A DNA stretch of 64,000 nt from an uncultured bacterium (lineage in GTDB: Bacteria; Patescibacteriota; Minisyncoccia; Minisyncoccales; Staskawiczbacteraceae), in contig CAWIDW010000005.1 of assembly GCA_963835045.1 (NCBI GenBank), forward strand, positions 63,210 through 127,209, written 5' to 3'. Position numbers and translations under genes: made by a program. The notes under the pieces are model-generated. The model was given only the letters and a program-made list of their open reading frames with translations. It did no database searches and was not told the DNA's origin. Shown here one piece after another: positions 17,736 through 59,290 of the stretch. Every line of letters starts with the position of its first letter. Positions within the stretch are counted from its first letter, which is position 1.

Positions 17736-17822
17736 GAAAATAGAAAATAGAAATATAGAAAATAGAATCGCGACGTCACGTTACGTATTCTATATTTCTA
17801 TTTTCTATATTTCTACTTTCTC
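17736..17822. repeat. Intergenic low-complexity imperfect palindrome, family B copy 1 (AAATAGAAA arms, CGACGTCACGTT core)
   Basis: Arms gaaaatagaaaatagaaatatagaaaatagaat / attctatatttctattttctatatttctactttctc; core cgcgacgtcacgttacgt. Confidence 0.85.
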
Positions 17823-17827
17823 ACGTT

Positions 17828-18331
17828 ATGGCATTAACTAAAGAGAAAAAACAGCATGCTTTGGCCGATATTAAAGCCAATATTGCCAAGCAAAAGTCGG
17901 TGATTTTTTTGGATTTTTCCAAAGTAAATTCCAAAGATTTGTTTGCTTTTCGCAAGCAATTAAAAGAGCAGGGTTGCAACCTCAAGGTGGGGAAAAAAAC
18001 GTTGATTCGAGTGGCTTTTGGACAATCGGGGATTTCGTTTTGGAACAAAATCAAAAGCGCCATTCCCGGACAATTAGCCTTGGTATTTGGCATGGAAGAC
18101 GAAGTAGCTCCGGCCAGAATTGCCAATCAATTTGCCAAAACCAACGAAAATTTTAAAATCTTGGGAGGCATTTTTGAGAAAAGATTCATTGACCGCGAGC
18201 GAGCCTTGGTATTGGCAAACTTACCAAGCCGAAACGAATTGTTGAGCCGATTGGTTGGTTCGCTATCCAGCTCCACGGCCAATTTTGTGCGAGTACTGGA
18301 TAAGATTAGAGAAAGCAAAGAAAAAAATTAA
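17828..18331 (+). CDS. rplJ: 50S ribosomal protein L10
   Basis: Typical L10 N-terminus and position upstream of rplL. Confidence 0.9.
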
Positions 18332-18335
18332 AACT

Positions 18336-18407
18336 CGTAACCCGTAACCAGGAACCCGTAACCGGTACATTAAAGTACGCGTTACTGGTTACCCGTTACC
18401 GGTTACC
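18336..18407. repeat. Intergenic imperfect palindrome, family C copy 1 (GTAACCGGTAAC arms)
   Basis: cgtaacccgtaaccaggaacccgtaaccggtac..gtacgcgttactggttacccgttaccggttaccc, between rplJ and rplL. Confidence 0.85.
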
Positions 18408-18414
18408 CAAGGTC

Positions 18415-18828
18415 ATGGCAGACGAAATTAAAACAGATGCTCCAAAAGTGGAGGTTCCGGCCAAATTTGAAAAAATGGTTTCGGAAGTTGAGAAAATGTC
18501 AATTGTTGAATTGGCGGAACTCGTAAAAGTGTTAGAAGCTAAGTTTGGCGTGTCAGCTGCCGCTCCGGTGATGATGGCCGCTGCTGGCGCTGCTCCCGAG
18601 GAAGCAAAAACTTCTTTCAATATTGAATTAAAAGAAGTGGGAGCCCAAAAAATTGAGGTTATTAAAGTGGTGCGCGATATCACCGCCAAAGGATTGAAAG
18701 AATCCAAAGATTTGGTTGATGCCGCTGCTACCGCTCCTCAAATGGTAAAGGAAGGTGTCAAGAAAGAAGAAGCTGACGAAATCGTCAAGAAATTTACCGC
18801 CGCTGGAGCCAAAGCAGAAATTAAATAG
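18415..18828 (+). CDS. rplL: 50S ribosomal protein L7/L12
   Basis: Ala-rich hinge and C-terminal [29 protein letters not shown].. Confidence 0.95.
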
Positions 18829-18840
18829 TCGCATTTTTAA

Positions 18841-18866
18841 AAACCGCTCTCAAAAGGGCGGTTTTT
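18841..18866 (+). terminator. Rho-independent terminator after rplL
   Basis: aaaccgc..gcggttt followed by T's. Confidence 0.6.
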
Positions 18867-18974
18867 AAGTGTATCCTTGGTTTGACAATCTTTAAAATAA
18901 GCGATATGATTTTGATGCACGGTTTAGTTGTGTGTCGTGGTGTTTTGGTGAATGTACCAGGAAGGGCGATTATC

Positions 18975-19838
18975 ATGTTGAGAGTTTGCAAGATTATTTT
19001 GGGGGTGGTTGTGTTGGGTCTGATATTGGCAGCTTTGTGGGAGGCAAAGCTTTCTGGCCAGACTCAAAAGCCGCCGTTAGTTTTACCTGAAGCATCCGAG
19101 TATCGGGCAACGGGCATGATAAAAAGTGCTCGATCTTTCACCCAAGTGGTGCCCAGCTCGGGCGAAAGTGGCGCTGATGGGCAAGTGGTGTCCTTTAAAA
19201 ATTTGGGAGACAGGGTTGCCAAGGGCCAAGAGGTGATTGAGTGCGAATACCTGAAGGGAAAGCAAATGGAGCTGGCGGCCGGACTCCAAAAAGCTAAGCT
19301 GCAAAAGGAGGTTGCCTGCCAACTCTTCCAAAAATGCAAAGAAGATAAGGAGCGTTACCAAGTGCTTTGGAAGACGGGTGCCATTTCTCAAGCAACCTGG
19401 AATACTGCGGTTTTTTCTTTTTTGAAAGCGGAGCTCGATTTTAAAGCCGCAGATCAGGATGTTATCATTGCTGACCAGCGTTCCAGTCCCTATAACTTTG
19501 CCGCGCAATTTGACAGTGAAGTTATTAGCGTGAGCGATCAGTTGCAAAAAGGTTTTATTATCGCCAAGTACGCCAAACCCATCGAATTGATGCGGCTGGC
19601 AAACTTGGATCAATTGGAGGTGACCGTTGAATTTCCTTATTTGTTGCAACACAGAATTGGTGGCTTTAGCGTTGTCTGTCATCGGGACAAAGCAAAAACA
19701 AGGCTCCCGGGTTGGCAAACCAGTCTCCAGGAAAGCAACGGCACTTTGTATCTGACGATTTGTTTTGACAACTCAAGGAGGACATGGAAGCCATTTGAGG
19801 CGGCGGAGGTTTTGGTAAGTCTGAAAAAAGACAAATGA
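18975..19838 (+). CDS. HlyD/membrane-fusion-protein-like periplasmic adaptor (orphan)
   Basis: N-terminal TM helix, lipoyl-like ..NLGDRVAKGQEVIE.., coiled-coil segment, beta-barrel-like C-terminus. GC-richer. Start chosen at ATG 18975. Confidence 0.5.
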   Translation: MLRVCKIILGVVVLGLILAALWEAKLSGQTQKPPLVLPEASEYRATGMIKSARSFTQVVPSSGESGADGQVVSFKNLGDRVAKGQEVIECEYLKGKQMELAAGLQKAKLQKEVACQLFQKCKEDKERYQVLWKTGAISQATWNTAVFSFLKAELDFKAADQDVIIADQRSSPYNFAAQFDSEVISVSDQLQKGFIIAKYAKPIELMRLANLDQLEVTVEFPYLLQHRIGGFSVVCHRDKAKTRLPGWQTSLQESNGTLYLTICFDNSRRTWKPFEAAEVLVSLKKDK

Positions 19839-19861
19839 TTTTTTGTGCAAAAGGAGCTTGT

Positions 19862-19957
19862 ATGTCGCGCGCAACATGGTGGTTTGGCATGGGTGTAATT
19901 GGACTGTCGGTATTTCCGCTCTTGATGGGTACGTTGTATCGCTTGTTTCGACCGTAG
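19862..19957 (+). CDS. 31-aa small membrane protein (not in ORF track)
   Basis: AAGGAG lies 5 nt upstream of the ATG; MSRATWWFGMGVIGLSVFPLLMGTLYRLFRP. Confidence 0.35.
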   Translation: MSRATWWFGMGVIGLSVFPLLMGTLYRLFRP

Positions 19958-19981
19958 GATTTGCCTTTTTTGGCAAGTTAG

Positions 19982-20007
19982 GGGCTGTCATTGGACAGCC
20001 CTTTTTT
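19982..20007 (+). terminator. Rho-independent terminator
   Basis: gggctgtc attg gacagccc followed by a T6 run. Confidence 0.7.
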
Positions 20008-20061
20008 GTTGTTTTTTCTTTAAAAAATGCTAGAATACAAAGGTGTGGAGAGCTCAATACT

Positions 20062-20460
20062 ATGCCTACCAATTACTACAAAATCTCCTGGACACAGCAC
20101 TCCCAAGCGAAGATGCGCCAGTACGGATTTTCAACTACCAAGCTCCTCAATGTCCTGCGCAAACCCGAGCGAACCGAACAGGGAATTGCACAAGGAACGC
20201 TGGCCGTGATGCAAACCAAAAAAGTATTTGGCAACAAAAAATTGGTCACCGATTCTGTAAAACCCTTCTATTCTGCCAGCATCAAAAAAGCTCCGGGCGA
20301 AATTTGGCTGATGTATAAAGACGATGCCAAAAAAGGCACTCGAACCATTATTAGCGCCTGGAGATATCCTGGAGTTTCAAAGCCCGGAGAACCGGTACCG
20401 ATTCCGGAAGAAATTCGCAAAGAGCTGCTGGGAGAATCTAATTTGAAATTTACAATTTGA
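20062..20460 (+). CDS. Hypothetical 132-aa protein
   Basis: ATG 20062 downstream of an extended -10 (tgctagaat). The upstream part of track ORF 19843.. spans a terminator and is rejected. The last 7 codons lie in a family-A repeat. Confidence 0.5.
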   Translation: MPTNYYKISWTQHSQAKMRQYGFSTTKLLNVLRKPERTEQGIAQGTLAVMQTKKVFGNKKLVTDSVKPFYSASIKKAPGEIWLMYKDDAKKGTRTIISAWRYPGVSKPGEPVPIPEEIRKELLGESNLKFTI

Positions 20461-20551
20461 AATTTGAAATGATTAAAATCGTCACATTTTCAAATTAACC
20501 TATTTACGTATTTCAAATTGATTTCAAATTGTAAATTTAAAATTTCAAATT
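20440..20551. repeat. Intergenic imperfect palindrome, family A copy 1 (AATTTGAAATTT arms)
   Basis: aatttgaaatttacaatttgaaatttgaaatgattaaaatcgtcacattttcaaatt...atttcaaattgtaaatttaaaatttcaaatt. Confidence 0.85.
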
Positions 20552-20557
20552 AAAATC

Positions 20558-20890
20558 ATGGATACAACTAATTTAAATCGAATAATCGGTTATATATTAT
20601 TGGCAGTGGGATTACTTTTAATAGCTACTCCACTGTATCAAACCTACAATATTTTTGTGGGCAAATCTTTGCCGGCGCAGGTGTTTCATGCGGCGCCAGT
20701 GGCCTCATCTGCTGCCCAAGCCAACAATCCGTTTGATATCCAGCAGCAAATGCAAAAAGCCCTAGTAGCCATTTTACCCATTGATTTAATTAATAACACG
20801 TTGAATTTGGGAAGCTGGGTTATTTTGCTTGGCATTTTAATGTACGGCGGGGGACAAATTGCCAACCTGGGAGTAAAATTGGTAAAATAA
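20558..20890 (+). CDS. Hypothetical membrane protein
   Basis: Two TM helices flanking a short hydrophilic loop. Confidence 0.5.
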   Translation: MDTTNLNRIIGYILLAVGLLLIATPLYQTYNIFVGKSLPAQVFHAAPVASSAAQANNPFDIQQQMQKALVAILPIDLINNTLNLGSWVILLGILMYGGGQIANLGVKLVK

Positions 20891-20914
20891 AATTGATGTA
20901 AATAGAGATGCGAT

Positions 20915-20990
20915 GGAATATCGCAAGCTCCGCAGAGCGAGCTTATATCCATGTTATATCATTCGCCAAAAGCGAATATATATCAACGTG
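20915..20990. repeat. Intergenic repeat, family H copy 1 (aatatcgc.agc..gcgag..atatc ... atatatatcaa)
   Basis: Shares its block structure with 51505-51572. Confidence 0.5.
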
Positions 20991-20993
20991 ATT

Positions 20994-21230
20994 ATGGAGG
21001 ATAAAAAACCAAAACTTATTGATCCGATTGTCAACAATCCCTTGGTTAAAAAGGGCAAATCTTTTTATAATCAAGTGATTCCGTTTGTATTGGGATTTGT
21101 GGGATTACTGGTAGTGATTTTAATTATTGGGCTTGGTGCTTTGCTTGCCGGCCGCCGATGGGATCCTTACTGGAATCCGTTTAAACCCCACCTGCACCAC
21201 TCCATCCAGTATCATAATTTTAAAAACTAA
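20994..21230 (+). CDS. Hypothetical 78-aa membrane protein
   Basis: ATG 20994; one TM helix (VIPFVLGFVGLLVVILIIGLGALLAG). Confidence 0.45.
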   Translation: MEDKKPKLIDPIVNNPLVKKGKSFYNQVIPFVLGFVGLLVVILIIGLGALLAGRRWDPYWNPFKPHLHHSIQYHNFKN

Positions 21231-21515: not shown

Positions 21516-21622
21516 ATCTTGAATTTAGGAGCTAGGAGCTTGAATGGAATAGATGAATAGAGAATTTTGAATTCAATATTCTCAATTCTATTCTAACTTC
21601 CAGCTACTAGCTTCCAGATTCA
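21516..21622. repeat. Intergenic imperfect palindrome, family D copy 1
   Basis: ~107 bp. About 88% identical by eye to the reverse complement of 52035-52141. Confidence 0.85.
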
Positions 21623-21627: not shown

Positions 21628-22059
21628 ATGTTAATTGGCCAATACAACCATACCATTGATATTAAAAAGCGCTTGGCGTTGCCGATTAAGTTTCGGGGAG
21701 AGCTGGGCGGCAAGGTAATTGTAACCAAGGGCGTGGAAAATTGTTTGGTGGTGTACACGGAAAAAGAATGGGAGGCGGTGTCTGGCAAGTTGGCTAACTT
21801 GCCGGTGTCGCAAACCGAAGCTCGCAGTTTTACCCGCCACTTATTGGCCAGCGCCACCGAAATTGAATTAGATAAACTGGGCAGAATATTAGTGCCTGAT
21901 TACTTGAAAGAATATGCTGACTTGAAAAAAAATGTGGTGGTTTGCGGATTATCCAATAGATTGGAAATTTGGGATCAAGAAAAATGGGCCAACTATTCCA
22001 AGGGAGCTGAAAAGGGAGTTGAAGAAATAGTTTCAAAATTGGGAAATTTAGGAATCTAG
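21628..22059 (+). CDS. mraZ: Transcriptional regulator MraZ
   Basis: MLIGQYNHTIDIKKRLALPIKFR.. and a second SpoVT-AbrB half; precedes rsmH. Confidence 0.9.
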   Translation: MLIGQYNHTIDIKKRLALPIKFRGELGGKVIVTKGVENCLVVYTEKEWEAVSGKLANLPVSQTEARSFTRHLLASATEIELDKLGRILVPDYLKEYADLKKNVVVCGLSNRLEIWDQEKWANYSKGAEKGVEEIVSKLGNLGI

Positions 22060-22077: not shown

Positions 22078-22974
22078 ATGACCCATAAACCCGTATTGCC
22101 TCGTGAAGTGTTAGAATATTTGGATCCCAAGCCCGGAGAAAATTTTATTGACGGAACGCTGGGACAGGGTGGACACACCTTATTGATACTAGAAAAAACA
22201 AAACCTGATGGCAAGGTACTGGGAATTGATGCCGACAGTGAGCAGATAGCAAGCAGTAAAACCATATTAAAAAATGTTACAGATCGGGTGACGTTGGTGC
22301 ATGATTCGTATCGCAATATCAAACAGATTGTTGAGCAAAGCGGAATGGTGGCACATGGAATCTTGATAGATTTGGGATATTCTTCCTGGCATATTGATGA
22401 AGCCAACAAAGGATTTTCTTTTGCAAAGGATCAGGCATTGGATATGCGCTATGATGTCCGGGGTGAATTAACGGCAAAAAAAATCGTCAATGAATATTTG
22501 CAGCAAGAATTGGAAAAAATAATCAGCGAATACGGAGAAGAAAAATTTGCCCGGCAAATTGCTAAGAAAATCACTGAAGCCAGGAAAATAAAAAGCATTG
22601 AAAGCACCTTCCAGTTAAAAGAAATTATTCAGGAAGCGGTTGAGAGAAAATATAGGCAAAGTAATATTCATTGTGCGACACGAACCTTTCAAGCATTGCG
22701 TATCGCGGTAAATCACGAACTGGAGAATCTGACGGATTTTTTACCCGATGCTTTGGATGTCTTGCCAATTGGCGGCAGATTGGTGGTGATTTCTTTTCAT
22801 TCGCTGGAAGACCGAATTGTCAAACAATTTTTTAAACAAAAAGCCGATGAAGGCGTAATAAAACTGCTTACCAAAAAACCCGTCATGGCCAGTGATGAAG
22901 AAATAAAAGAAAATCCAAGAGCCAGGTCAGCAAAATTAAGAGCCATCGTAAAAAACGAGAAAATAGAAATATAG
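22078..22974 (+). CDS. rsmH: 16S rRNA (cytosine1402-N4)-methyltransferase RsmH
   Basis: HKPVL..E.L......DGT.G.GGH, DLG.SS.. and FHSLEDRIVK motifs. Confidence 0.9.
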   Translation: MTHKPVLPREVLEYLDPKPGENFIDGTLGQGGHTLLILEKTKPDGKVLGIDADSEQIASSKTILKNVTDRVTLVHDSYRNIKQIVEQSGMVAHGILIDLGYSSWHIDEANKGFSFAKDQALDMRYDVRGELTAKKIVNEYLQQELEKIISEYGEEKFARQIAKKITEARKIKSIESTFQLKEIIQEAVERKYRQSNIHCATRTFQALRIAVNHELENLTDFLPDALDVLPIGGRLVVISFHSLEDRIVKQFFKQKADEGVIKLLTKKPVMASDEEIKENPRARSAKLRAIVKNEKIEI

Positions 22975-23046
22975 AAAATAGAAATATAGAATACGCAACG
23001 TCGCTGTTCACATTCTATTTTCTATATTTCTACTTTCTACTTTCTC
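22957..23046. repeat. Intergenic imperfect palindrome, family B copy 2 (inverted relative to copy 1)
   Basis: Its left arm is the reverse complement of the copy 1 right arm, and vice versa. Overlaps the last 6 codons of rsmH. Confidence 0.85.
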
Positions 23047-23054: not shown

Positions 23055-23408
23055 ATGTCAACTGCAACACTTAGTCATCATTCGGTGCATCGGGGAAAGG
23101 GGATTGCCATGCCTTCGTTGGCAATACCCTGGAAGTTTATTTATTTTCTGGCAGCCATTTGTTCTGTTTTAATGCTAATTTTTTATATTTTTCAAGTCAA
23201 TCAATTGACCATGGAGTCTTACTTGATTAAAAATGATAACAGGCAGATGAGCATGTTAACCCAAGAAAATACCGACTTGCAGGCAAATTTTGCCCAAACC
23301 AGTTTCTTGGGCCAAGTCCAAAGCGAAGCGGCGTCGTTGGATTTTCAAAAAACCACCAACGTAGCCTATGTCCAATTATTGCAGCCTTCACTGGCAGAAG
23401 CAAAGTAG
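23055..23408 (+). CDS. FtsL-like cell-division membrane protein
   Basis: Single TM helix then a coiled-coil; lies between rsmH and ftsI. Confidence 0.5.
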   Translation: MSTATLSHHSVHRGKGIAMPSLAIPWKFIYFLAAICSVLMLIFYIFQVNQLTMESYLIKNDNRQMSMLTQENTDLQANFAQTSFLGQVQSEAASLDFQKTTNVAYVQLLQPSLAEAK

Positions 23409-23409
23409 A

Positions 23410-23481
23410 CGTTAGATTTTGGATGTTAGATATTGCAAAAAGGAAAGCTGTGCTAACATTTAAAATCTAATATCTAACATC
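23410..23481. repeat. Intergenic imperfect palindrome, family F (TTAGATATT-type arms)
   Basis: ttagatttt / aaaatctaa and gatgttagatatt / aatatctaacatc complementary blocks. Confidence 0.8.
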
Positions 23482-26268: not shown

Positions 26269-26307
26269 CCAAGACTCCTTTTCAAGGTTCAAAAAACACA
26301 TTGCCGG

Positions 26308-26382
26308 CGCTCTCATGGGGATTTGAACCCCAGTTACGTGGATGAGAACCACGCGTCCTGGACCGGGCTAGACGATGAGAGC
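26308..26382 (-). tRNA. tRNA-Glu (anticodon CUC)
   Basis: Hand-folded cloverleaf: acceptor GCTCTCA/TGAGAGC, D stem GTCT/GGAC, anticodon stem CGTGG/CCACG with loop TTCTCAT, variable loop TAAC, T arm TGGGG-TTCAAAT-CCCCA, discriminator G. CCA is not encoded. Confidence 0.85.
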
Positions 26383-26386: not shown

Positions 26387-26413
26387 CAAATTTCAAATTG
26401 TAAATTTCAAATT
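26387..26413. repeat. Family A half-element (single arm) upstream of tRNA-Glu
   Basis: caaatttcaaattgtaaatttcaaatt equals the right arm of family A. Confidence 0.7.
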
Positions 26414-26476: not shown

Positions 26477-27601
26477 ATGAACATATTGAGAAACTATCTG
26501 TATCCGATTGTCACCTTGATGGGAAGCATTATCGGAGTGGGTTTTTTATCTCTGCCCTACATCACGTTGGAGGTTGGCATTTGGCCCATGCTTTTTTATT
26601 TTGTGTTCTTGACCGGAGTAGTTTTGTGCATTCACGTTATTTTCGGCAAAATTGCTTTAAAAACTCCCGATTACAAACGTTTCCCCGGATTTGTCGGATT
26701 TTATTTGGGAGACGTCGCCAAGGCCATTACTTTGGTGACGATTATCCTGGCATCCTTTGGAGGTTTACTGGTGTATCTGATTGTTGGCAGCCAATTTTTG
26801 AGCACCTTGCTCCAACCCATCTTTGGCGGTAGCGTATTTATTTACGCGATTGGCTATTTTGTTTTGGCCAGCGCCGTGGTCTACTTGAGTGTTAGGGCTG
26901 TCAGCCGAGTGGAATTTTTTTCTTTTGTCTTTTTGTTTTGCGCGTTTACGCTGATAGCCGTGTCCGAATTTTCAAAAATATCCCTGGGCAATATAGCTCT
27001 TGTCGGTCCCGCATTTTTTACTGACTGGAGAATTTTGTTTTTACCCTACGGGGCCATTATTTTTTCTTTGTGGGGGATTGGACTTATTCCCGAAGTGGAA
27101 GAAATGCTGATGGGCAGAAAAAAATTGCTCAACAGCGTGATTATTATTTCTATTTTAATTTCAGCAGCTATCTATTTGCTGTTTATTTTTTTGGTGCTGG
27201 GAATTTCGGGTACGGCTACCAGTCAGTCGGCACTGGTGGGACTGAAAGGTTTTTTGGGCGAAGGACTGTTTGTGGTGGCGATGTGCATCGGAGTGGTGAC
27301 GACATTTACTTCATTTGTTACCCAGGGACTTTTTTTAAAAAAAGTATTTGTCTATGACATGAAGTTTCCGGAAGGCGTTGCCTGGATCATAACCTGCGTC
27401 GTTCCACTGATCCTCCTGCTGGCGGGATTTAATTCTTTCATTGACCTGATATCACTGGTGGGCGGATTTATCCTTGGCATCGAAGGCATTTTAATTTTGC
27501 TGATGTATCGAAAAATTGGAGGCAAACTGATAGTCATTTACCCCTTGGCAATCGTATTTTTATTGGGGGCAGTCTACTCGGTGGTGTACTTTGTAAGATA
27601 A
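26477..27601 (+). CDS. Amino-acid permease-like transporter (about 11 TM)
   Basis: Polytopic; N-terminal GSIIGVGFLSLPY resembles the aromatic amino-acid/APC-type permease motif. Confidence 0.5.
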   Translation: MNILRNYLYPIVTLMGSIIGVGFLSLPYITLEVGIWPMLFYFVFLTGVVLCIHVIFGKIALKTPDYKRFPGFVGFYLGDVAKAITLVTIILASFGGLLVYLIVGSQFLSTLLQPIFGGSVFIYAIGYFVLASAVVYLSVRAVSRVEFFSFVFLFCAFTLIAVSEFSKISLGNIALVGPAFFTDWRILFLPYGAIIFSLWGIGLIPEVEEMLMGRKKLLNSVIIISILISAAIYLLFIFLVLGISGTATSQSALVGLKGFLGEGLFVVAMCIGVVTTFTSFVTQGLFLKKVFVYDMKFPEGVAWIITCVVPLILLLAGFNSFIDLISLVGGFILGIEGILILLMYRKIGGKLIVIYPLAIVFLLGAVYSVVYFVR

Positions 27602-27742
27602 TTTGAAATTTACAATTTGAAATTTGAAATCAATTTGAAAATCTTGAATTTGAAATGATTAAAACCCGACGTCACGTTTTCAAATTCAATTATTTAAACA
27701 TTTACGTATTGATTTCAAATTGTAAATTTTAAATTTCAAATT
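27600..27742. repeat. Intergenic imperfect palindrome, family A copy 2 (core CGACGTCACGTT)
   Basis: Outer arms aatttgaaatttacaatttgaaatttgaaatcaat / attgatttcaaattgtaaattttaaatttcaaatt; inner stem gaatttgaaa/tttcaaattc. Confidence 0.85.
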
Positions 27743-27748
27743 AACATT

Positions 27749-28834: not shown

Positions 28835-28864
28835 TTGACAATAATACTTAATATGTTCTATAAT
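28835..28864 (+). promoter_or_regulatory. Near-consensus sigma70 promoter upstream of rmuC
   Basis: TTGACA (28835-28840), 18-nt spacer, TATAAT (28859-28864). Confidence 0.55.
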
Positions 28865-30050: not shown

Positions 30051-30151
30051 AAACCAAACACCAAGAAACAATAACCAAACAAATTCCAATCTCCAAATTC
30101 AAAATTCCAAACGTGACGAGTTTGTATCTTGTTTCTTGTATCTTGGTTATT
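30051..30151. repeat. Intergenic imperfect palindrome, family E copy 1 (AACCAAGAAACA arms; core AACGTGACG = reverse complement of CGTCACGTT)
   Basis: aaaccaaacaccaagaaacaataaccaaacaaa ... tttgtatcttgtttcttgtatcttggttatt. Confidence 0.8.
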
Positions 30152-32982: not shown

Positions 32983-33000
32983 TACAATAACGATGTAGTG

Positions 33001-33139
33001 AATTTGAAATTTACAATTTGAAATTTGAAATCAATTTAAAATAGCTAAATTTGAAATGTGTAAAACTGTCACGTTTTCAAATTTAAACATTCAATCATTC
33101 GCTATTGATTCCAAATTGTAAATTTCAAATTTCAAATTT
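33001..33139. repeat. Intergenic imperfect palindrome, family A copy 3
   Basis: The first 35 nt are identical to copy 2; core ctgtcacgttttcaaatt. Confidence 0.85.
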
Positions 33140-33145
33140 ACAGAT

Positions 33146-37605: not shown

Positions 37606-38172
37606 TTATTCGCTCGCGCGTTTGACGTATTCTCCCAGTTCCGTGTTGACCTCAATCATGTCGCCTTCTTCAATGAACAATGGGACTTGGACGGCGGCGC
37701 CGGATTCTAGGATGGCTTCTTTGGTGCCGCCTTGGGCTCGGTCGCCTTTAACTCCGGGAGCAGCTTCCTTTACTTTGAGAGTTACTTTGATGGGGGACTT
37801 AACGTTGATGATTTTTTCGCCAAAGACAACACCTTCCATAATAGAATTTGGTTTAAAAAACTTGGCTTGTTTGCCCAGTTGATCTTCGGTAAAGAAAAAC
37901 CGTTTTGAAGGGTCTTTTTCTTCAGAGAACCAATACTGGCCTTTGCTTTGGTATAAAAATTTAATGGAAAGCTTTTCCAAATTAGCTTCATCAAAAACAT
38001 CTCCTTGCTGGAAGTTTTTTTCTTGGAATCGGCCATCAATAAGGTTTTTAATTTTGGTTTGCACCACCGGGCGACGCTGGGCCATTTTAACCAAAAGCGC
38101 GTCCATTACTTCCCATGGCTGATTTTCAAAAATAAATTGAGTACCCTTTTTTAAGTCGGTATGTGTGAGCAT
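37606..38172 (-). CDS. efp: Elongation factor P (non-canonical beta3-beta4 loop)
   Basis: Gapless alignment by eye to E. coli EF-P over the N-terminus; C-terminal ..PGVKGDRAQGGTKEAILESGAAVQVPLFIEEGD.I.V.T..GEY..R. Confidence 0.9.
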   Translation of the reverse strand: MLTHTDLKKGTQFIFENQPWEVMDALLVKMAQRRPVVQTKIKNLIDGRFQEKNFQQGDVFDEANLEKLSIKFLYQSKGQYWFSEEKDPSKRFFFTEDQLGKQAKFFKPNSIMEGVVFGEKIINVKSPIKVTLKVKEAAPGVKGDRAQGGTKEAILESGAAVQVPLFIEEGDMIEVNTELGEYVKRASE

Positions 38173-39912: not shown

Positions 39913-40479
39913 ATGAACAAAAGGCATCGAATTTTTATCGCCATTAATTTGCCGGTTGATATTAAAAAGCGTCTGGCCGGTTTTGAAAAAAAGTGGTCGG
40001 ATCTTCCTGCCAAATGGACGCCGCAGGATAATTTGCATATCACCTTGCTTTTTTTGGGAGACGTTACTGATGAGGAATTGGGGAATGTCTGTCTTACGGT
40101 AAAGCGGGTTGCCAAGGATCAACAATCATTTAATGTGGTTTTACAAAAAGTGGCTTACGGGCCAGAAGGAAAAATTCCACCTCGATATATTTGGGTGGGT
40201 GGCCAAACGATTAAAGAAGCCGTGGCGCTCAAACACGATTTGGAAAATGCTCTTAATGATGTGGTAAAATTTGCCCTTGATAAAAATGTATTTACCCCGC
40301 ACATCACCCTGGCCCGAGTAAAAGAATGGGAATGGCGAGCCCTGGAACCAGAAGAGCGGCCGGAAGTTAACGAAACCATGGAGCTGACATTTACGGTTGA
40401 GTCAATTGAAGTGATGGAGTCGGAATTGACCAGGCAAGGGCCAAGGTACACGGTGGTGGAGTCCCACCAGTTACAATAA
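39913..40479 (+). CDS. thpR: RNA 2',3'-cyclic phosphodiesterase (2H phosphoesterase, ThpR/LigT)
   Basis: Two HxT motifs: LHITLLFLG and PHITLARV. Confidence 0.85.
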   Translation: MNKRHRIFIAINLPVDIKKRLAGFEKKWSDLPAKWTPQDNLHITLLFLGDVTDEELGNVCLTVKRVAKDQQSFNVVLQKVAYGPEGKIPPRYIWVGGQTIKEAVALKHDLENALNDVVKFALDKNVFTPHITLARVKEWEWRALEPEERPEVNETMELTFTVESIEVMESELTRQGPRYTVVESHQLQ

Positions 40480-40598
40480 TTTCGAATTCTGAATTTTGAA
40501 TAAAATCAGAATACGTTAATGACACAAACACGTTTCACGTTTCGAAATTAACTCATTTAAATATTTAATCAAAATTCAAAATTAGAAATTCAAAATTC
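40478..40598. repeat. Intergenic imperfect palindrome, family-A-like variant (AATTCGAAAT / AAATTCAAAATT arms)
   Basis: aatttcgaattctgaattttgaat ... cacgtttcacgtttcgaaatt ... atcaaaattcaaaattagaaattcaaaattc. Confidence 0.75.
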
Positions 40599-43501: not shown

Positions 43502-43502
43502 C

Positions 43503-46965: not shown

Positions 46966-46966
46966 G
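46904..46966 (+). repeat. 63-bp direct repeat, copy 1 (last 20 codons + stop of mraY)
   Basis: Identical at 63/63 to 47151-47213. Confidence 0.95.
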
Positions 46967-47150
46967 TTTAAAAAAATAAGAAGAGAATAATCCAAAATCG
47001 CACAAAGGGGGTCGGGGAAATTGGTAAGGGAAGCCGCAGCGGACACTTAGTTCTCGTAGATAGAACCCCCGTGGAGGAAAACAGTCCCATGAGCGCACGA
47101 ATGGAGACGTTAGAAACCTTGGGTTTCTAAGGAGCGAGTTAGGGAGCGAC
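46967..47150 (+). other. 184-bp GC-richer insert of unknown nature between the two mraY-3' copies
   Basis: Contains ataatccaaaatcg (46987-47000), complementary to cgattttggattat (47150-47163), and a perfect 9-bp hairpin ttagaaacc ttg ggtttctaa (47110-47130). No convincing ORF. Confidence 0.5.
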
Positions 47151-47213
47151 GATTTTGGATTATCGGAATTGTCCTGGCAATTATCGGAGTAGTCATAAAA
47201 CTGATTGGGTAGG
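47151..47213 (+). repeat. 63-bp direct repeat, copy 2 (non-coding copy of mraY 3' end)
   Basis: Identical to 46904-46966. The in-frame upstream sequence has a stop at 47111-47113 and no ATG. Confidence 0.95.
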
Positions 47214-47240
47214 CGTTTACTTTAAAAGAGGGCAAGATAC

Positions 47241-47269
47241 TTGACAAAATATTGCCAATAGAGTAATAT
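47241..47269 (+). promoter_or_regulatory. Sigma70-like promoter of the large surface-protein gene
   Basis: TTGACA (47241-47246), 17-nt spacer, TAATAT (47264-47269). Confidence 0.5.
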
Positions 47270-47344
47270 ATATCATAGTCGTGTTTACAACCTATTTGTA
47301 ATAGGTTAGGGTATAATATTATTCACTTAACAGTAGATACATTT

Positions 47345-51480: not shown

Positions 51481-51504
51481 GATATTAGTTGATCTGACGG
51501 ATAT

Positions 51505-51572
51505 GCATAGATATTGCGGATATTAATATCGCGAGCCAAAGCGAGTGAATATCTTAATATCAATATATATCA
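51505..51572. repeat. Intergenic repeat, family H copy 2
   Basis: aatatcgcgagccaaagcgagtgaatatc ... atatatatcaa; compare 20915-20990. Confidence 0.5.
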
Positions 51573-51581
51573 AAACTAGGT

Positions 51582-52034: not shown

Positions 52035-52141
52035 TGAATCTGGAAGCTAGTAGCTGGAAGCTGGAATAGAATACGGAATCAAGAATTCAAGATTCCATAT
52101 TCATTTATTCCATTCAAGCTTCTAGCTCCTAAATTCAAGAT
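52035..52141. repeat. Intergenic imperfect palindrome, family D copy 2 (inverted relative to copy 1)
   Basis: Its reverse complement aligns with 21516-21622 without gaps, with ~13 mismatches. Confidence 0.85.
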
Positions 52142-54087: not shown

Positions 54088-54172
54088 AGTTCATGAAACA
54101 TGGAACATGAAACATGGAACAAACGAAAAGTAACGTTTTGATCTATGATCTATGCTCTATGATGTATGAAGA
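54088..54172. repeat. Low-complexity divergent intergenic region with two non-complementary tandem-repeat arms
   Basis: catgaaacatggaacatgaaacatggaac ... aaacgaaaagtaacgtttt ... gatctatgatctatgctctatgatgtatg. Confidence 0.7.
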
Positions 54173-54904: not shown

Positions 54905-55402
54905 TTAGACCTCTTTTTTTATTAACGTTTCCGCCATGTCGCGCCACTTGGAGGTTCTGGGTTTTTGTTTGTACTTGGCGGTTTGTTTGTGGATTTCCAT
55001 TAAAGAAAGCAGGTCGTTTTTTTTCCATTTAGATAAGTAGATGCCTTTATTTTGATAAATAATCGCTACGGCTTTCTGCCATAAATTAAATTGCTTTTTC
55101 TTGTTGTCCGCCAAAGTATTTTTTTGAAAGTAGGGGACAACGATTTGGTAGAGTTCGGAAATATTTTGCACCGAAAGCCGAGCCTGGTTTTTGGCCACGG
55201 AAACTGTCCCGCATCCTAACATCTTTATTGCTTTTTTCAATACCAACATTTCTTCTTTGGGCAGGGTAATAACAAACTGGATTTTCCAGCGATAATAGGT
55301 AGGGCTTCCGGTTCGCTCGCGGCGGGTATCTTTTCTAAACTGTAAATCAAAACAGCCATCGGTGTTTACCAAATGAGTAAGGTTGAAAGTTTCTTTTTGC
55401 AT
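54905..55402 (-). CDS. Free-standing LAGLIDADG-family homing endonuclease (single-motif type)
   Basis: LTHLVNTDGCFDLQF occupies the LAGLIDADG position. Downstream ..LVLKKAIKMLGCGTVS..RLSVQNISELYQIVVPYFQKN.L...KKKQFNLW.. matches the I-CreI-like fold pattern. The last codons lie in the uppS terminator hairpin. Confidence 0.65.
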   Translation of the reverse strand: MQKETFNLTHLVNTDGCFDLQFRKDTRRERTGSPTYYRWKIQFVITLPKEEMLVLKKAIKMLGCGTVSVAKNQARLSVQNISELYQIVVPYFQKNTLADNKKKQFNLWQKAVAIIYQNKGIYLSKWKKNDLLSLMEIHKQTAKYKQKPRTSKWRDMAETLIKKEV

Positions 55403-55489: not shown

Positions 55490-56275
55490 ATGATAAAAGT
55501 CCGAAATCTGGTTAAAAAATATGGGGATTTTATAGCGGTCAACGGCGTCTCTTTTGATGTGGAAGACGGAGAAGTGTTTGCTTTTTTGGGGCCCAATGGT
55601 GCCGGAAAAAGTACCACCATTAAAATGCTCACCACCATTTTGCATCCCACGTCCGGGTCGGTGATGCTCAACGGCATTGATCCGGTCAAGGATCCCGAGC
55701 AAGCCCGCCGGTCATTTGGAATTGTGTTCCAAGATCCGAGCGTGGATGAGGATTTGACCGCCTGGGAAAATCTTGATTTGCATGGCGTGCTCTACGATGT
55801 GCCCGAGAAAGAGCGCCGCCAGAGATCCGAGGAACTCTTGAAGTTCGTTGATTTGTGGGGACGTAAAGATAGTTTGGTGAAGGAATTTTCCGGCGGGATG
55901 AAGCGGCGTCTTGAAATAGCCCGGGCATTTTTACACGAGCCCAAGATTATTTTTTTGGATGAGCCGACAATCGGCCTTGACCCGCAAACCCGAAACTTAA
56001 TGTGGGAACGCATCCATGAGCTGAATAAAACCAAGGGGACTACGATTTTTTTTAGTACGCACTTAATGGAAGAAGCTGATAAGTGGGCGAATAGGATATC
56101 AATTATGGACCATGGAAAAATTCTTACCACCGGAAGTGCCGCAGACTTAAAGCAACAAACCAACACCCAGTACCTTGAAGATGCCTTCTTGGCGCTGACG
56201 GGCAAAGACATCCGGGAACAAGGTGCTGAGGCGAGCAATGCCATGAAGGCGTTCCGCGGCGGCGGCCGGCGATAG
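55490..56275 (+). CDS. ABC transporter ATP-binding protein (ABC-2/DrrA-like)
   Basis: Walker A GPNGAGKST, signature SGGMKRRL, Walker B IIFLDEPT. Confidence 0.9.
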   Translation: MIKVRNLVKKYGDFIAVNGVSFDVEDGEVFAFLGPNGAGKSTTIKMLTTILHPTSGSVMLNGIDPVKDPEQARRSFGIVFQDPSVDEDLTAWENLDLHGVLYDVPEKERRQRSEELLKFVDLWGRKDSLVKEFSGGMKRRLEIARAFLHEPKIIFLDEPTIGLDPQTRNLMWERIHELNKTKGTTIFFSTHLMEEADKWANRISIMDHGKILTTGSAADLKQQTNTQYLEDAFLALTGKDIREQGAEASNAMKAFRGGGRR

Positions 56276-56321
56276 TATTTATTGCCGAGGTATTGAGCCA
56301 TAAATAAAGTCTGGTAAAACT

Positions 56322-56795
56322 ATGCATATATATGAAACCCCAAGTTTTGAAGTCGACTCCCAGGAAAAACCTTTTGTTTCAAGAACAGAAGGCGGCCACG
56401 TTCGAATAAAAATAAAAGATCGCGAAATAACAGACAGAACCAAACTTGATCCAAAAACAGCGATTGAACTAATGCGTTTAACTATGATTGTGGGCGAGGC
56501 TTTCGAAACAGCTATGAATAATCGTGGGATTCCTGTTATAAAGATTAACTATCAAGATATGGGTAATTGGGCGTGGAAAGAAAACAAAAAGCCGTATCTT
56601 CATGTGCATATTTTTGGAAGAGCATCTGATGCGATGAAACAAAAATGGCCAGAAAGTGTTTATTTGCCAGATAGATCAACGGGTTTTTACGATGGGTTCG
56701 AGCCAGTAAATGAAGAGGATATTAAAGAAATACAGAAACAAATTGACTTGGTGTCACAAAGAGAAAAATATAAATTAGAAAATTGGGGATTATAG
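56322..56795 (+). CDS. HIT-like (histidine-triad-fold) protein, degenerate triad
   Basis: ..PYLHVHIFGR.. resembles HxHxH with the third His replaced. Inserted between the ABC ATPase and permease genes. Confidence 0.35.
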   Translation: MHIYETPSFEVDSQEKPFVSRTEGGHVRIKIKDREITDRTKLDPKTAIELMRLTMIVGEAFETAMNNRGIPVIKINYQDMGNWAWKENKKPYLHVHIFGRASDAMKQKWPESVYLPDRSTGFYDGFEPVNEEDIKEIQKQIDLVSQREKYKLENWGL

Positions 56796-56829
56796 CTCGA
56801 CCGAGAAGTTTAACTCTTTATTAAAATAC

Positions 56830-57585
56830 ATGGTTATTGAAAAAATTTATTACCTTTGGCTGCGGCAGATTAAAAAGTATTTAAGGTCTACGCCCCGATT
56901 AATCGGGACGCTGGCCCAGCCGGTGGTGTTTTTGGTCATGTTTGGGTATGGCCTTGGCAGTACGTTTGCCCAGGCGGGAGGAAATTACATCGATTATCTG
57001 GTGCCTGGAATTATTGCTATGAGCATTATTTTTACCGCTATTTTTACGGGGATAGAAATGATTTGGGACCGGCAATTCGGATTTTTGAAAGAAACGTTGG
57101 TGGCTCCCATGTCTCGGTTTAATGTGATGCTGGGCAGAACACTGGGCGGGGCAACCGTTTCCACCATCCAGGGCATCATCGTCTTTTTTATCGCCCTTCT
57201 TTTTGGTTTTCGGCCTATCAGTTGGCTGGCAGTCATTCCCGCCGTCGGTATTATGTTTTTAATATCACTGGTGTTTGCGGCATTCGGGACATGTATCGGC
57301 TCGGTTCTGGAAGATATTCAGGCATTCTCTATCATCATTAATTTTATCATTCAGCCGTTGTTATATCTTTCGGGAGCATTATTCCCCGCGACTGGATTTC
57401 CCAGCTGGCTTTCTTTTATTTCCCATGTAGATCCGCTCACATATGGTAATGATGCTCTGCGGTATTTGCTTTCTGGCATCGGGTATCATGATTTGGGATT
57501 AGGATTAGATACGCTGGCACTGATTATTTTTTCAGTAATTTTCTTGGCCGCCGGAGGATACTTTTTTGAAAAAATCCAGATTTAG
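56830..57585 (+). CDS. ABC-2 type transporter permease
   Basis: Six TM helices; follows the ABC ATPase. Confidence 0.8.
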   Translation: MVIEKIYYLWLRQIKKYLRSTPRLIGTLAQPVVFLVMFGYGLGSTFAQAGGNYIDYLVPGIIAMSIIFTAIFTGIEMIWDRQFGFLKETLVAPMSRFNVMLGRTLGGATVSTIQGIIVFFIALLFGFRPISWLAVIPAVGIMFLISLVFAAFGTCIGSVLEDIQAFSIIINFIIQPLLYLSGALFPATGFPSWLSFISHVDPLTYGNDALRYLLSGIGYHDLGLGLDTLALIIFSVIFLAAGGYFFEKIQI

Positions 57586-57639
57586 TATTATAATAGATTT
57601 GTCATTCAATAAAACTCACAGATAACCTTCTATACTTTT

Positions 57640-59157
57640 ATGAATCCATTTCAATCAATAAAACAATTTCTTTTTATCCATATCCGGTTGGCTTTCGGGT
57701 TGGTTGTGATTATTGCCGCGATCGGAACGGTTTGGTACATTGTTTCCAATAGTCCGCCTAATTTGCCTTCTTACGCCGTTGGAAAAGGAAACGTGGTCGC
57801 GTCGGTTGATATTCCCGGAACCGTTTCTTCAAGCGACAGCGTTGCCCTTTCATTTCAAGAGTCGGGTAAAATAGCAAGCGTAAATGTCCAAGAAGGACAA
57901 ATGGTGACCCAAGGCCAAGTTCTTGCCAGTTTGAGCGCTTCAAGCCAGCAAACACAGCTTGAGCAAGAGCAGGCGGCGCTGGCGGCAGCACAGGCAAATT
58001 ATCAAAAATTGTTGGCGGGAGCCACAACTCAAAGCGTTCAAACATCACAAGACGCCGTAAATTCAGCCAATCAAAACTTAACCAATGCTTATAGCGGGGC
58101 CATGAATACCTTAAACACTGCCTCCACCACTATTTACAATACTTATAACTTGGCGGTTTCAATTCAAAATAAATATTTTAACGAACAAGATTCTGAAGGC
58201 ATCGCGGTTTCCGGAGCCAGGAGTGATTTAAATGCCAGTATGTCAAGCGCCCAGAGTTCTTTGGCGGTCGCCCAAAAAAGCATGGCGCCCACAGATATTA
58301 ATGCCGCCGTTACCCAAATGAGTTCCTCCCTTAATAATGCTTACAGCGATATCAGCATCATCCGCGCCCAGTGCGACCAAGGAACCTACTATTACGCTGT
58401 CACATCCACTGACAAGGCGTCTTTGGACAGTCAAAAAGCGTCAGTTAGTGCTGTCTTGACCAGTGTCACAGCTTTGCAGCAAAGTATTTCTTCGTTAGCT
58501 TTGGCGCTGCAAACCGCCCAAGACCAATTAAATGTAACCACCGAGCCTCCTACAACCGCAGATATTAGTTCAGCAAAAGCCCAAATCGCCGCCGCCCAAG
58601 CCCAAATAGAAAGCGCCAATGTCCAAATAAATAATACCACCATCGTAGCTCCGTTTTCTGGCATGGTTATTAACGTGGTCGGTCAAGTGGGCATGGTGGT
58701 TTCTCCCAACGCCCCGGTTCTTTCTTTAATTAATAATCAAATCATGAAGTTTGACGCCTTCGCGCCTGAAAGCGAGGTTTCCCAAATACAAGCCAATGCC
58801 AGCGCGAATGTGGTCCTGGATGCTTACAATGGTCCAACATTTCCGGCAAAAGTGACGGCCATTGATACGGGAACCACCATGTTTAATGGATCTCCCGCTT
58901 ACCAAGTTACGCTGTATTTTACAGAGCCCGATGCCAGAATTTTTTCAGGCATGACTGGCAACGTTCTTGTTACAACCGGTGAACATGATAATGTGGTTAC
59001 CATCCCTTCGCGCCTCGTGCTGGCAAGTGGCAATAATACTGTTGTCCGCATGCAAGATGGCTCGATGCGCCAAATTACCATTGGATTAACGGGAAGCAAT
59101 AATATGGTGGAAGTTGTATCGGGTTTGCAAGCCGGTGAAAAGCTAAGCGATTATTAA
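57640..59157 (+). CDS. HlyD/MacA-like membrane-fusion (periplasmic adaptor) protein
   Basis: TM anchor, lipoyl-like ..VQEGQMVTQGQVLA.., very long Ala/Gln-rich coiled-coil, ..IVAPFSGMVINV.., beta-barrel C-terminus. Confidence 0.75.
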   Translation: MNPFQSIKQFLFIHIRLAFGLVVIIAAIGTVWYIVSNSPPNLPSYAVGKGNVVASVDIPGTVSSSDSVALSFQESGKIASVNVQEGQMVTQGQVLASLSASSQQTQLEQEQAALAAAQANYQKLLAGATTQSVQTSQDAVNSANQNLTNAYSGAMNTLNTASTTIYNTYNLAVSIQNKYFNEQDSEGIAVSGARSDLNASMSSAQSSLAVAQKSMAPTDINAAVTQMSSSLNNAYSDISIIRAQCDQGTYYYAVTSTDKASLDSQKASVSAVLTSVTALQQSISSLALALQTAQDQLNVTTEPPTTADISSAKAQIAAAQAQIESANVQINNTTIVAPFSGMVINVVGQVGMVVSPNAPVLSLINNQIMKFDAFAPESEVSQIQANASANVVLDAYNGPTFPAKVTAIDTGTTMFNGSPAYQVTLYFTEPDARIFSGMTGNVLVTTGEHDNVVTIPSRLVLASGNNTVVRMQDGSMRQITIGLTGSNNMVEVVSGLQAGEKLSDY

Positions 59158-59158
59158 A

Positions 59159-59290
59159 ATAACCAAGATACAAGAAACAATAACCAAGCAATGCCCAATA
59201 TAAAAAATTAAAAATTCCAAATGCCAGTTAATGTTTGGATATTGAGATTTGAATATTGTTTGTATCTTGTTTCTTGGTGATTGTTTCTTA
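59159..59290. repeat. Intergenic imperfect palindrome, family E copy 2
   Basis: aataaccaagatacaagaaacaataaccaagcaa ... aaaaattccaaa..tttggatatt ... attgtttgtatcttgtttcttggtgattgtttct. Confidence 0.8.

Follow-up and report, generated by a model that had tools for sequence, protein, structure and literature searches.

Introduction

The enterobacterial repetitive intergenic consensus or intergenic repeat unit (ERIC/IRU) and the Correia elements, also called Neisseria miniature insertion sequences (NEMIS), are imperfect palindromes of ~100-150 bp that are co-transcribed in intergenic and intra-operon positions, and their RNA hairpins have been reported to affect processing and stability. Each of these families has one consensus and a non-periodic sequence, and Correia elements show TA duplications and integration host factor (IHF)/promoter features. 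The attC sites of integrons are imperfect palindromes as well, 57-141 bp long and diverse in sequence, and lie between co-oriented genes. In this study, we describe stem-loop elements with arms built of tandem 7-nt units in a stretch of 64,000 nt with ~42% GC (hereafter the window) from an uncultured bacterium of the Staskawiczbacteraceae, Patescibacteriota (contig CAWIDW010000005.1 of assembly GCA_963835045.1, positions 63,210 to 127,209). They are similar to the ERIC and Correia repeats as palindromes of intergenic and intra-operon DNA but differ in their heptamer arms and their adjacency to start codons, and we know of no repeat of the ERIC/Correia type with either of these two features. 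An integron attC identity was rejected: although the units of one element, S1 (GTTAGAT/ATCTAAC), fit GTTRRRY/RYYYAAC, most families lack core sites, each arm contains its unit several times over, and the genes on either side belong to the core genome, are syntenic with relatives lacking the elements and are not cassettes. No integrase was found in 64 open reading frames (ORFs) of the window that were scanned with Pfam and NCBIfam, which are nearly all of those of at least 70 aa (six short ORFs were left unscanned).

Repetitive extragenic palindromic (REP) sequences occur in several sequence groups per genome, and their inverted halves with a spacer are predicted to form a hairpin in single-stranded DNA or mRNA (PMC3116915), whilst REPINs are doublets of 20-40-nt REPs that are linked to the gene of a REP-associated tyrosine transposase, RAYT (Bertels & Rainey 2011, PMC3116915). 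The elements of the window are like REPs, REPINs and bacterial interspersed mosaic elements (BIMEs) in that they are extragenic, repeated, of several groups, hairpin-forming, non-coding, non-autonomous and occasionally clustered; on two of the contigs used for comparison (comparison loci and contigs carry L-numbers), L128 (2454-2811) and L133 (1118-1275), heptamer hairpins lie in tandem or overlapping clusters that are BIME/REPIN-like. They are unlike REPs and REPINs in that their arms are 3-7 tandem heptamers (17-55 nt) with no single REP unit and no GTAG-type REP head, and in that they abut start codons, are absent from convergent spacers and form families that cross genera. With miniature inverted-repeat transposable elements (MITEs) they share terminal inverted repeats, which here make up most of the element. 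A target-site duplication of the MITE type was looked for in the flanks of one family, A, in the window and in L140, and TA...TA was seen in two copies only, in low-complexity sequence; no insertion sequence, such as the parent with the same termini that a MITE has, lies within the window. The likeness to REP, BIME or MITE elements that an initial annotation of this DNA had proposed holds broadly, for the elements are dispersed intergenic repeats of several families that form hairpins, but membership in any of these classes is not established.

As to the units, the closest parallel in the literature is the heptamer repeat TAACTGA (MacGregor 2015, PMC4679880), known from marine Beggiatoaceae and from some Cyanobacteria and Bacteroidetes, which stands a few nt ahead of start codons, also of ribosomal-protein genes, in Shine-Dalgarno-poor spacers, and for which a role in translation was proposed with the proteins S1, Csp or CsrA as binders (PMC4679880). 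Tandem 7-nt units with stop triplets, nearness to start codons, Shine-Dalgarno-poor spacers and ribosomal-protein genes are common to both. The TAACTGA repeats are one forward motif without a hairpin, with 169 direct sets and one indirect (PMC4679880), whereas in this study 43 unit types were found in opposed arrays that form hairpins, and in another phylum. Long simple sequence repeats with units of 5-11 nt, of which heptanucleotides are the commonest and for which slippage is assumed, are summarised in PMC4679880 after Mrazek et al. 2007; they resemble our elements in their heptanucleotide units and in change of unit number, but are single direct arrays with no required position, whereas our arrays are inverted pairs whose placement is bound to stop and start codons. 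Lastly, in the cip-cel operon six intergenic regions have stem-loops that serve as cleavage signals and stabilise both flanking transcripts (PMC10311766). They share the intercistronic position with the elements described here, but the cip-cel stems are unique, locus-specific and GC-rich and are no dispersed periodic repeat. No description of such elements in Patescibacteria was found in the literature, of which subscription journals were incompletely covered.

Architecture and families of the elements

It is highly probable that these elements constitute a class of dispersed, non-coding stem-loop repeats of Parcubacteria-type Patescibacteria, which sits in transcribed, start-proximal spacers, shows a translation-like polarity and evolves by whole units. 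All 14 listed elements fold as one long RNA hairpin, with z-scores from -3.25 to -8.53 against 200 dinucleotide shuffles each, of which zero or one folded equally well, and an ungapped inverted-repeat scan of the window detected 14 elements as compared to 0-1 in block shuffles. The best autocorrelation lag was 7 in 14 of 14 elements, with values of 0.57-0.79, against ~0.25-0.29 at all lags above 2 in coding and other intergenic DNA. The common plan is that of two opposed arrays, each of 3-7 tandem 7-nt units, around a loop of 10-25 nt; the elements are 65-145 bases long, with arms of 17-55 nt and AU-rich stems of 20-55 bp. Across 120 elements the arms have 21% GC and are nearly free of CpG, whereas the loops are of ordinary composition with 35% GC.

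The units are (AATTTGA)n in family A, (GAAAATA)n in family B, (GTAACCN)n in family C, (GTTAGAT)n in S1 and (CATGRAA)n in S2, while D and E consist of mixed heptamers. Family A is well founded, as its copies A1, A2 and A3 align directly (scores 60-96, with 96 for A2-A3) and 31 nt at the 5' end are identical in all three. In families B, C and D, the second copy aligns better as the reverse complement of the first: 66 against 55 for B1 and B2, 43 against 28 for C1 and C2, and 81 against 45 for D1 and D2. Relative to transcription, C1 and C2 have the same orientation, and the B and D copies are found in both. E1 and E2 align with a score of 39 in either orientation, which is only a loose relation.

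The initial annotation had placed the sequences correctly and was right about their capacity to form hairpins, for which the arm pairs were recovered by the repeat search, and about the reverse-complement relation within B, C and D. It had described the arms as short tandem motifs, which are indeed tandem and are specifically heptamers, and had grouped them in families, of which A stands while the two copies of E are only loosely related. Its description of the arm sequences as unrelated was mistaken, since every arm is a tandem 7-nt array with the same polarity, and thus the families differ in sequence but display one architecture.

A 12-nt loop core, CGACGTCACGTT, is present at 17745-17756 in B1 and at 27668-27679 in A2, which belong to different arm families. 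A conserved loop motif was rejected, as this core does not recur generally among 120 elements and ACGT occurs in only 28 of their loops.

Position relative to genes, promoters and codons

The census of elements covered 17.1-59.4 kb of the window, where 16 of the 33 spacers of at least 40 nt harbor an element, so that the earlier statement that most intergenic spacers are occupied was too strong. Among these spacers, the occupied ones were 13 of 22 co-directional, three of seven divergent (one with a solo arm only) and none of four convergent. The 16 elements, of at least seven groups, lie within 42 kb and are all extragenic except for overlaps with stop codons, and the first 17 kb of the window have none. 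Since they are confined to intercistronic and 5' untranslated region (5' UTR) spacers, they would be co-transcribed with their genes.

These genes were identified as the earlier reading had them, with elements at rplJ-rplL and rsmH-ftsL-ftsI and before mraZ, murC, pyrG and rplU; in all, the window contains rplJ-rplL, the division and cell wall (dcw) cluster mraZ-rsmH-ftsL-ftsI, rplU, efp, murC, rplI, pyrG and rpmA. All six translation genes between 17 and 64 kb (rplJ, rplL, rplU, rplI, rpmA and efp) have an element directly upstream, as compared to 9 of 49 other genes (Fisher p = 1.7e-4; p = 0.003 without the weak case of rplI). A wider control of the ribosomal-protein enrichment gave lower bounds only, 14 or more among 52 downstream genes and 13 or more among 150 neighbours, from a family summary that hides singletons.

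The earlier suggestion that the elements stand in for promoter and terminator space was not borne out, as ordinary promoters and terminators are found elsewhere and the spacers filled by elements are near zero in relatives. Other spacers of the same genome carry strong TTGACA/TATAAT promoters, for example at 28835, 38956 and 17583; these strong promoters (11-12 of 12 positions) are all outside the elements, and terminators with a GC stem and T run are placed at operon ends and in four of the four convergent spacers of at least 40 nt. The promoter scan of the elements gave only weak 9-10/12 matches that come from the repeat units, at inconsistent distances to the start codon, and the terminator scan listed no element, the short G+C-rich stem with a T run being absent. 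Promoter or terminator function was therefore rejected, since canonical signals occur in other spacers and the elements fit neither pattern. Elements accompanied by a promoter (B1, D1 and S2) come after it and belong to the 5' UTR. That the elements are unconventional attenuators or terminators, AU-rich hairpins with a U-rich 3' arm that weakens the RNA-DNA hybrid, is extremely improbable: the T-rich 3' arms and A-rich 5' arms do recall terminators of an A-tract, a hairpin and a U-tract, but elements lie inside operons that need co-expression (rplJ-rplL, dcw and, in L150, rpsM-rpsK-rpsD-rpoA) and directly after promoters, in a genome with ordinary terminators whose pattern no element meets.

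The placement of the elements is closely related to stop and start codons. The distance from element to start codon in the window is mostly 2-11 nt, and the upstream stop codon is supplied by or lies inside A1, B2, S1, A2 and the A-variant. The geometry was quantified in 42 clean co-directional family-B spacers among the matches listed, which have a median length of 92 nt, with the stem lying a median of 3 nt from the stop codon and 7 nt from the start codon; the distance between the end of the last TTCTA unit and the start codon is 5-6 nt in 21 of 33 cases. As the first TAGAANN unit provides the stop of the preceding gene, this stop is TAG in 22 of the 42 spacers, against a background of 21% (p = 5e-6).

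The arms are also polar. The purine-rich arm is the 5' arm in 100 elements and the 3' arm in 11, or in 30 unit families as compared to 6 (p = 7e-5), and the 3' arms are U-rich. As inversion of a hairpin leaves the composition of its 5' and 3' arms intact, this skew is informative on a process running from 5' to 3'. A 7-nt unit that contains a stop triplet gives a stop in each frame every 21 nt. All three frames are closed within 28 nt in 65% of 5' arms against 16% of composition-matched shuffles, and still in 40% against 13% when families other than B are taken; for 3' arms the figures are 10% against 5%.

Shine-Dalgarno-like motifs precede none of the 15 genes with an element and 6 of the 55 without. 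Four gene starts (8454, 42335, 55490 and 62732) have -10-like TATAAT boxes that end 7-16 nt before the ATG, and these boxes, together with the rarity of Shine-Dalgarno motifs, suggest that leaderless or near-leaderless mRNAs may be made.

Distribution in relatives and metagenomes

The best relatives of the window's RsmH have 55-63% identity and those of its permease up to 63%, all from Parcubacteria-type Patescibacteria, and the nearest named relatives of the window are Candidatus Staskawiczbacteria. Gene order is kept in L034, a Staskawiczbacteria locus, and in L003, L014, L002, L004, L005 and L008. The lengths of orthologous junctions are bimodal: those without an element measure -4 to ~30 nt, and those with a hairpin, whether of the window's family or a different one, 70-150 nt. 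For instance, the junction that holds A2 in the window has 8-16 nt in L002, L003, L034 and L014; the gene calls of rsmH and ftsL share 4 nt in six relatives; ftsL and ftsI overlap by 4 nt in several, and their spacer, the site of S1, ranges from -4 to 26 nt. The rplU junction, the site of E1, has a different hairpin in L034 and 5-45 nt in L002, L003 and L014. Before mraZ, L034 carries a hairpin of another family, and between mraZ and rsmH it has an extra hairpin where the window has 18 nt. These comparisons show that copies are gained and lost at junctions that otherwise are -4 to ~30 nt long or overlapping.

Family B, on the other hand, is found in L034, of a sister genus, at the same two sites as in the window, with 91% identity before rplJ and 80% at rsmH-ftsL, compared to 66-72% in the flanking coding DNA, so that some copies are old and positionally stable. 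The question raised earlier, whether orthologous spacers of relatives would show gain and loss or fixed sequences, thus has a divided answer, with gain and loss between relatives in general and family B fixed at two sites in L034. More distant Patescibacteria (L019, L011, L024, L040, L027 and L042) have heptamer hairpins of their own at these junctions, such as a TAGAAC-type hairpin at rsmH-ftsL in L019. In L040, at ~6300-6338, an AATTTCA heptamer run apparently lies inside the rsmH frame, which has 331 aa as compared to 298 aa in the window. Taken over the window and 39 loci of the Candidate Phyla Radiation (CPR), lag 7 was the best lag in 36 of 83 intergenic inverted repeats against 4 of 52 intragenic ones, and 41 non-CPR loci (642 kb) had only two lag-7 hairpins.

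The families extend beyond the window, and many unit families (A, B, C, D, S2 and others) are shown to be common to several genomes. L140 (41.7% GC) has two family-A copies, one with a 35-nt arm identical to A2/A3, which together with one B and one TACGAAT-type copy occupy consecutive spacers; a D-like copy was found in L114 and S2-like (CATGAAR) copies in L150 and L179. The family-B pattern GAAAATAGAAAATAGAA-N(8-38)-ATTCTA matched at least 120 stretches, of which many come from contigs of groundwater metagenomes, and the 43 heptamer unit types were counted in ~2 Mb of loci. L093 and L199 represent one locus in two versions, of which one has an additional GAAAATA unit in its 5' arm but not in its 3' arm. 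In L150 (3144-8593) a heptamer hairpin stands before each of rpsM, rpsK, rpsD, rpoA, rplM and rpsI. Neighbouring spacers carry different families, which alternate in the L150 cluster, and the window is likewise arranged (B, C; D, B, S1). Seven contigs of GC ~0.6 (L084, L097, L099, L168, L171, L175 and L181) display 3-4 direct GAAAATA repeats right before the ATG, that is, the family-B heptamer without a hairpin partner.

Among the matches listed, 60 proteins encoded downstream of family B fall into 50 clusters that are mutually unrelated; the products include L16 (three times), L11, S16, L15 and RpoA (twice each), and S7, L14, S11, L20, S19, RpoB, TopA, SSB and NusB. Because these genes are unrelated, family B is a dispersed element and not a gene-specific operator. 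A cis-element specific to rplJ and ftsL, as its conservation there in L034 might have suggested, was rejected on the same ground, namely the 50 unrelated gene clusters that it precedes.

With regard to this dispersal, the elements could be purely selfish, non-autonomous mobile DNA of the MITE or REPIN kind, spread by an unseen transposase or by recombination and without host function, in which case the hairpin, the stop-rich 5' arm and the proximity to start codons would be the outcome of purifying selection filtering insertions in a compact genome. The variable presence at orthologous junctions speaks for this explanation, as do near-identical copies at unrelated junctions within and between genomes, the B and D copies in both orientations relative to transcription, and the want of a compensatory or G-U signal in the stems, which is taken up below. 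It is also consistent with the metagenome (Logan) contigs on L150, in which the depth at elements is 5-20x that of genes and which end at the elements, and with the sole other assembly of the window's mraZ-rsmH region (Logan contig L001), which breaks inside D1 and B2. We nonetheless regard it as somewhat unlikely. The scan of 64 ORFs (six short ones unscanned) detected neither a transposase nor a RAYT, in agreement with the first reading of this DNA, and neither is among the top Pfam families of 202 genes that neighbour family B; inspection of the family-A copies showed no consistent target-site duplication; families are retained from one genus to another, in some cases at the same position, as with B in L034; and the elements are enriched before the most highly expressed essential genes, where a selfish insertion would be least tolerated.

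Elements of the window

The copies are given here in the order of their positions, which are on the plus strand unless the minus strand is named. B1 (17735..17821), a (GAAAATA)n/(TATTTTC)n hairpin in the 5' UTR of rplJ, has a z of -7.6, a folding energy of -30.1 kcal/mol, a lag-7 value of 0.62 and, by the repeat search, arms of 26 nt that are 96% complementary; it lies between the L10 leader (17614-17735, Rfam), which follows a promoter at 17583-17611, and the rplJ ATG at 17828. C1 (18337..18406), a (GTAACCN)n hairpin (z -4.7; lag-7 0.79), occupies the rplJ-rplL spacer from 5 nt past the rplJ stop codon to 8 nt short of the rplL ATG. A1 (20439..20552; z -4.2), which aligns with A2 and A3, is an (AATTTGA)n hairpin with arms of 37 nt, 84% complementary; the preceding ORF (19843-20460) terminates at a TGA within its 5' arm, and the following ATG is at 20558.

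Three elements stand in the dcw cluster. D1 (21520..21622; -41.3 kcal/mol, z -5.4) is the hairpin of the mraZ 5' UTR and ends 5 nt before the ATG at 21628; upstream of it a terminator, a promoter and GTGGA/GTGGG repeats were found, the boxes being identified by eye. B2 (22958..23046; z -8.5) is the family-B hairpin of rsmH-ftsL, with arms of 31 nt that are 90% complementary, and the rsmH stop TAG (22972-22974) is part of one of its TAGAAAT units. S1 (23406..23476; z -7.6, lag-7 0.65), the (GTTAGAT)n hairpin of ftsL-ftsI, has the stop codon TAG as the first 3 nt of its stem.

A solo family-A arm, identical to family-A arm units, is present at 26387..26413 on the minus strand, adjoining a tRNA-Glu (26306-26382, minus). 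The largest family-A copy, A2 (27599..27743; -39 kcal/mol, z -6.9), has arms of 50 nt that are 84% complementary and separates an aromatic amino-acid permease-like gene, whose stop TAA forms the first 3 nt of the stem, from a Ca/Na antiporter gene, whose ATG comes 5 nt after the stem. E1 (30052..30148; z -4.4, lag-7 0.62), with an A/C-rich 5' arm and a G/T-rich 3' arm, is found before rplU (ATG 30158). A3 (32998..33141; -37.5 kcal/mol, z -6.0), another family-A copy, has arms of 24 nt with 96% complementarity and precedes a hypothetical gene (ATG 33146).

On the minus strand, the family-C copy C2 (38178..38242; z -4.0) is situated between two minus-strand genes, 5 nt before the start of efp (Pfam) at 38172. 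The A-variant (40478..40590; z -3.3), with (AATTYGA/AATTTTG)n arms of 27 nt that are 89% complementary, precedes murC (Pfam; start 40601). A weak extra candidate with GATATT-type arms (51485..51579, in the spacer stretch 51481-51581) lies before rplI (L9, Pfam), with a z of -2.4 and 5 of 200 shuffles that fold equally well. D2 (52038..52141; -41 kcal/mol, z -6.6), the reverse complement of D1, is placed before pyrG (Pfam; ATG 52153). S2 (54090..54170, minus; z -3.8, lag-7 0.75) is a (CATGRAA)n hairpin that forms the entire 5' UTR of rpmA (L27, Pfam; start codon 54087). Directly upstream is a promoter, TTGACA-17-TACAAT at 54202-54174, matching 11 of 12 positions with a TG extension, and S2 begins where this promoter would initiate transcription. 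E2 (59158..59282; z -4.4) is a loosely E-like hairpin with arms of 38 nt, 71% complementary, which separates two HlyD-like ORFs (Pfam) at 57640-59157 and 59281-59913; these may be distinct genes or the halves of a single gene that the element interrupts.

In the Rfam comparison that had been proposed for these elements, only a tRNA and the L10 leader of the window passed at gathering score and no element did; at E<=1 the elements gave only sub-threshold matches to eukaryotic miRNA-precursor hairpins.

Other features of the window

A reverse-transcriptase ORF (7119-8423, minus, PF00078) adjoins a 643-aa ORF (5191-7122) with a terminal Lcl_C domain, and the gene layout of this pair alone makes it diversity-generating-retroelement-like. 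At 11629-11670, in a convergent spacer, a perfect palindrome of 21+21 nt (TTTGTCCCGAGGCTAAGCCTC / GAGGCTTAGCCTCGGGACAAA) is followed immediately by a second terminator-like hairpin. The 379-nt spacer at 46966-47344, before a 723-aa ORF, contains a 14-nt inverted repeat (46987-47000/47150-47163) around a GC-rich stretch of ~150 nt; it has no Rfam match and may be a structured RNA. A free-standing LAGLIDADG endonuclease ORF is located at 54905-55402 on the minus strand between uppS and an ABC-transporter gene.

Discussion

Our reading of these data is that the elements are dispersed, co-transcribed stem-loop repeats shaped by translation, with a function inferred from sequence, and we hold the chances of this reading as a whole to be evenly balanced. 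A co-transcribed element would fold into an AU-rich hairpin of 20-55 bp and so loop out the inserted sequence, with the stem extending from the upstream stop codon, or a few nt from it, to ~5-8 nt short of the next start codon. The 5' arm, which is rich in purines, would provide stops in the three frames whichever way the element is inserted, and because it can do so in any frame the upstream ORF is expected to end at the foot of the stem, while the U-rich 3' arm and a short A/U linker would present the start codon. In this way, stop and start codons may be kept physically juxtaposed in a genome that nearly does without Shine-Dalgarno sequences, and termination-reinitiation coupling may be preserved where relatives have overlapping or nearly overlapping stop and start codons. 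A 5'-terminal or intercistronic stem may also buffer or protect mRNA ends. A role at the RNA level in translation or stability, taken by itself, is possible, with a probability somewhat short of even.

Several observations weigh against this reading. The sense RNA folds no better than the antisense in a test of G-U against A-C asymmetry (33 elements, p = 0.28), so there is no G-U signature of RNA-level selection, and variant units follow one another on the 3' arm in an order that mirrors the 5' arm no better than permuted orders (34 elements, not significant), which indicates that the pairing comes from complementary unit cores and not from compensatory evolution. Together with the loop results, these tests argue against fine compensatory selection on an RNA helix. 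For S2, D1 and B1, which lie in 5' UTRs, there is no preceding ORF with which translation could be coupled; the ribosomal-protein enrichment comes from a single window; and selfish elements able to survive only in tiny or overlapping junctions would be expected to show the stop/start geometry and the stop-rich 5' arm just as well. Furthermore, the public sequencing runs that match the window or L150 are DNA only, with no RNA run, which makes co-transcription, folding and the effect on translation predictions.

The same symmetry of the strands, which fold equally well with Watson-Crick complementarity that is not G-U tolerant, would be compatible with a role at the level of DNA, either as iteron-like binding sites of a protein, given that iterons also have tandem short motifs like these arms, or as cruciforms in chromosome organisation or replication. 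This is very improbable, as 43 unit sequences would require many proteins or a sequence-blind one, the restriction to transcribed, start-proximal spacers and the polarity of the arms point to a polar process, and a period of 7 bp is out of phase with the DNA helix of ~10.5 bp per turn.

The stems might instead act in mRNA processing or stability, being cut by an endoribonuclease such as RNase III or blocking exonucleases, so that segments of an operon differ in stability and 5' stems protect the message. Stems of 20-55 bp at intercistronic positions, the association with ribosomal-protein genes and the place of S2, which by the position of the promoter is the extreme 5' end of the rpmA message, agree with such a role, and the stem-loops of the cip-cel operon are a precedent (PMC10311766). 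Even so, it is quite unlikely to be the explanation: cleavage in cip-cel needs GC-rich stems (PMC10311766) whereas the arms here have 21% GC, processing alone leaves the 7-nt units, the all-frame stops of the 5' arm and the 5-6-nt distance to the start codon unexplained, and the runs found for the window and L150, as said, contain no RNA.

In a stronger form of our translation-related reading, the elements would be a host device of Shine-Dalgarno-poor Patescibacteria, an intercistronic RNA module that halts the upstream ribosome in any frame at one foot of the stem and hands it over, or leads a newly recruited one, to a start codon 5-8 nt past the other foot, thereby replacing the overlapping or nearly overlapping stop and start of relatives, and whose families would differ between neighbouring spacers to avoid cross-pairing. 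We consider this stronger form unlikely.

Conclusions

Patescibacteria make up a large share of bacterial diversity and their gene expression is little understood. The elements offer a recognisable signature in these genomes, namely two opposed arrays of 7-nt units, of which the 5' one is purine-rich and the 3' one has its foot 5-8 nt short of a start codon. In practice, they break short-read assemblies, as L001 illustrates, gene callers may be misled because the repeat supplies stop codons, and the variation in unit number can provide markers for strain typing. Why the unit should be 7 nt is a question that links them to the heptamer repeats of cyanobacteria and Beggiatoaceae. If the elements are selfish, they would represent a repeat that colonises the ribosomal-protein operons of a minimal genome by means of its own frame-independent stop and self-folding; and if they act in translation, they would reveal how internal cistrons are initiated in a lineage in which the use of Shine-Dalgarno sequences is scarce.

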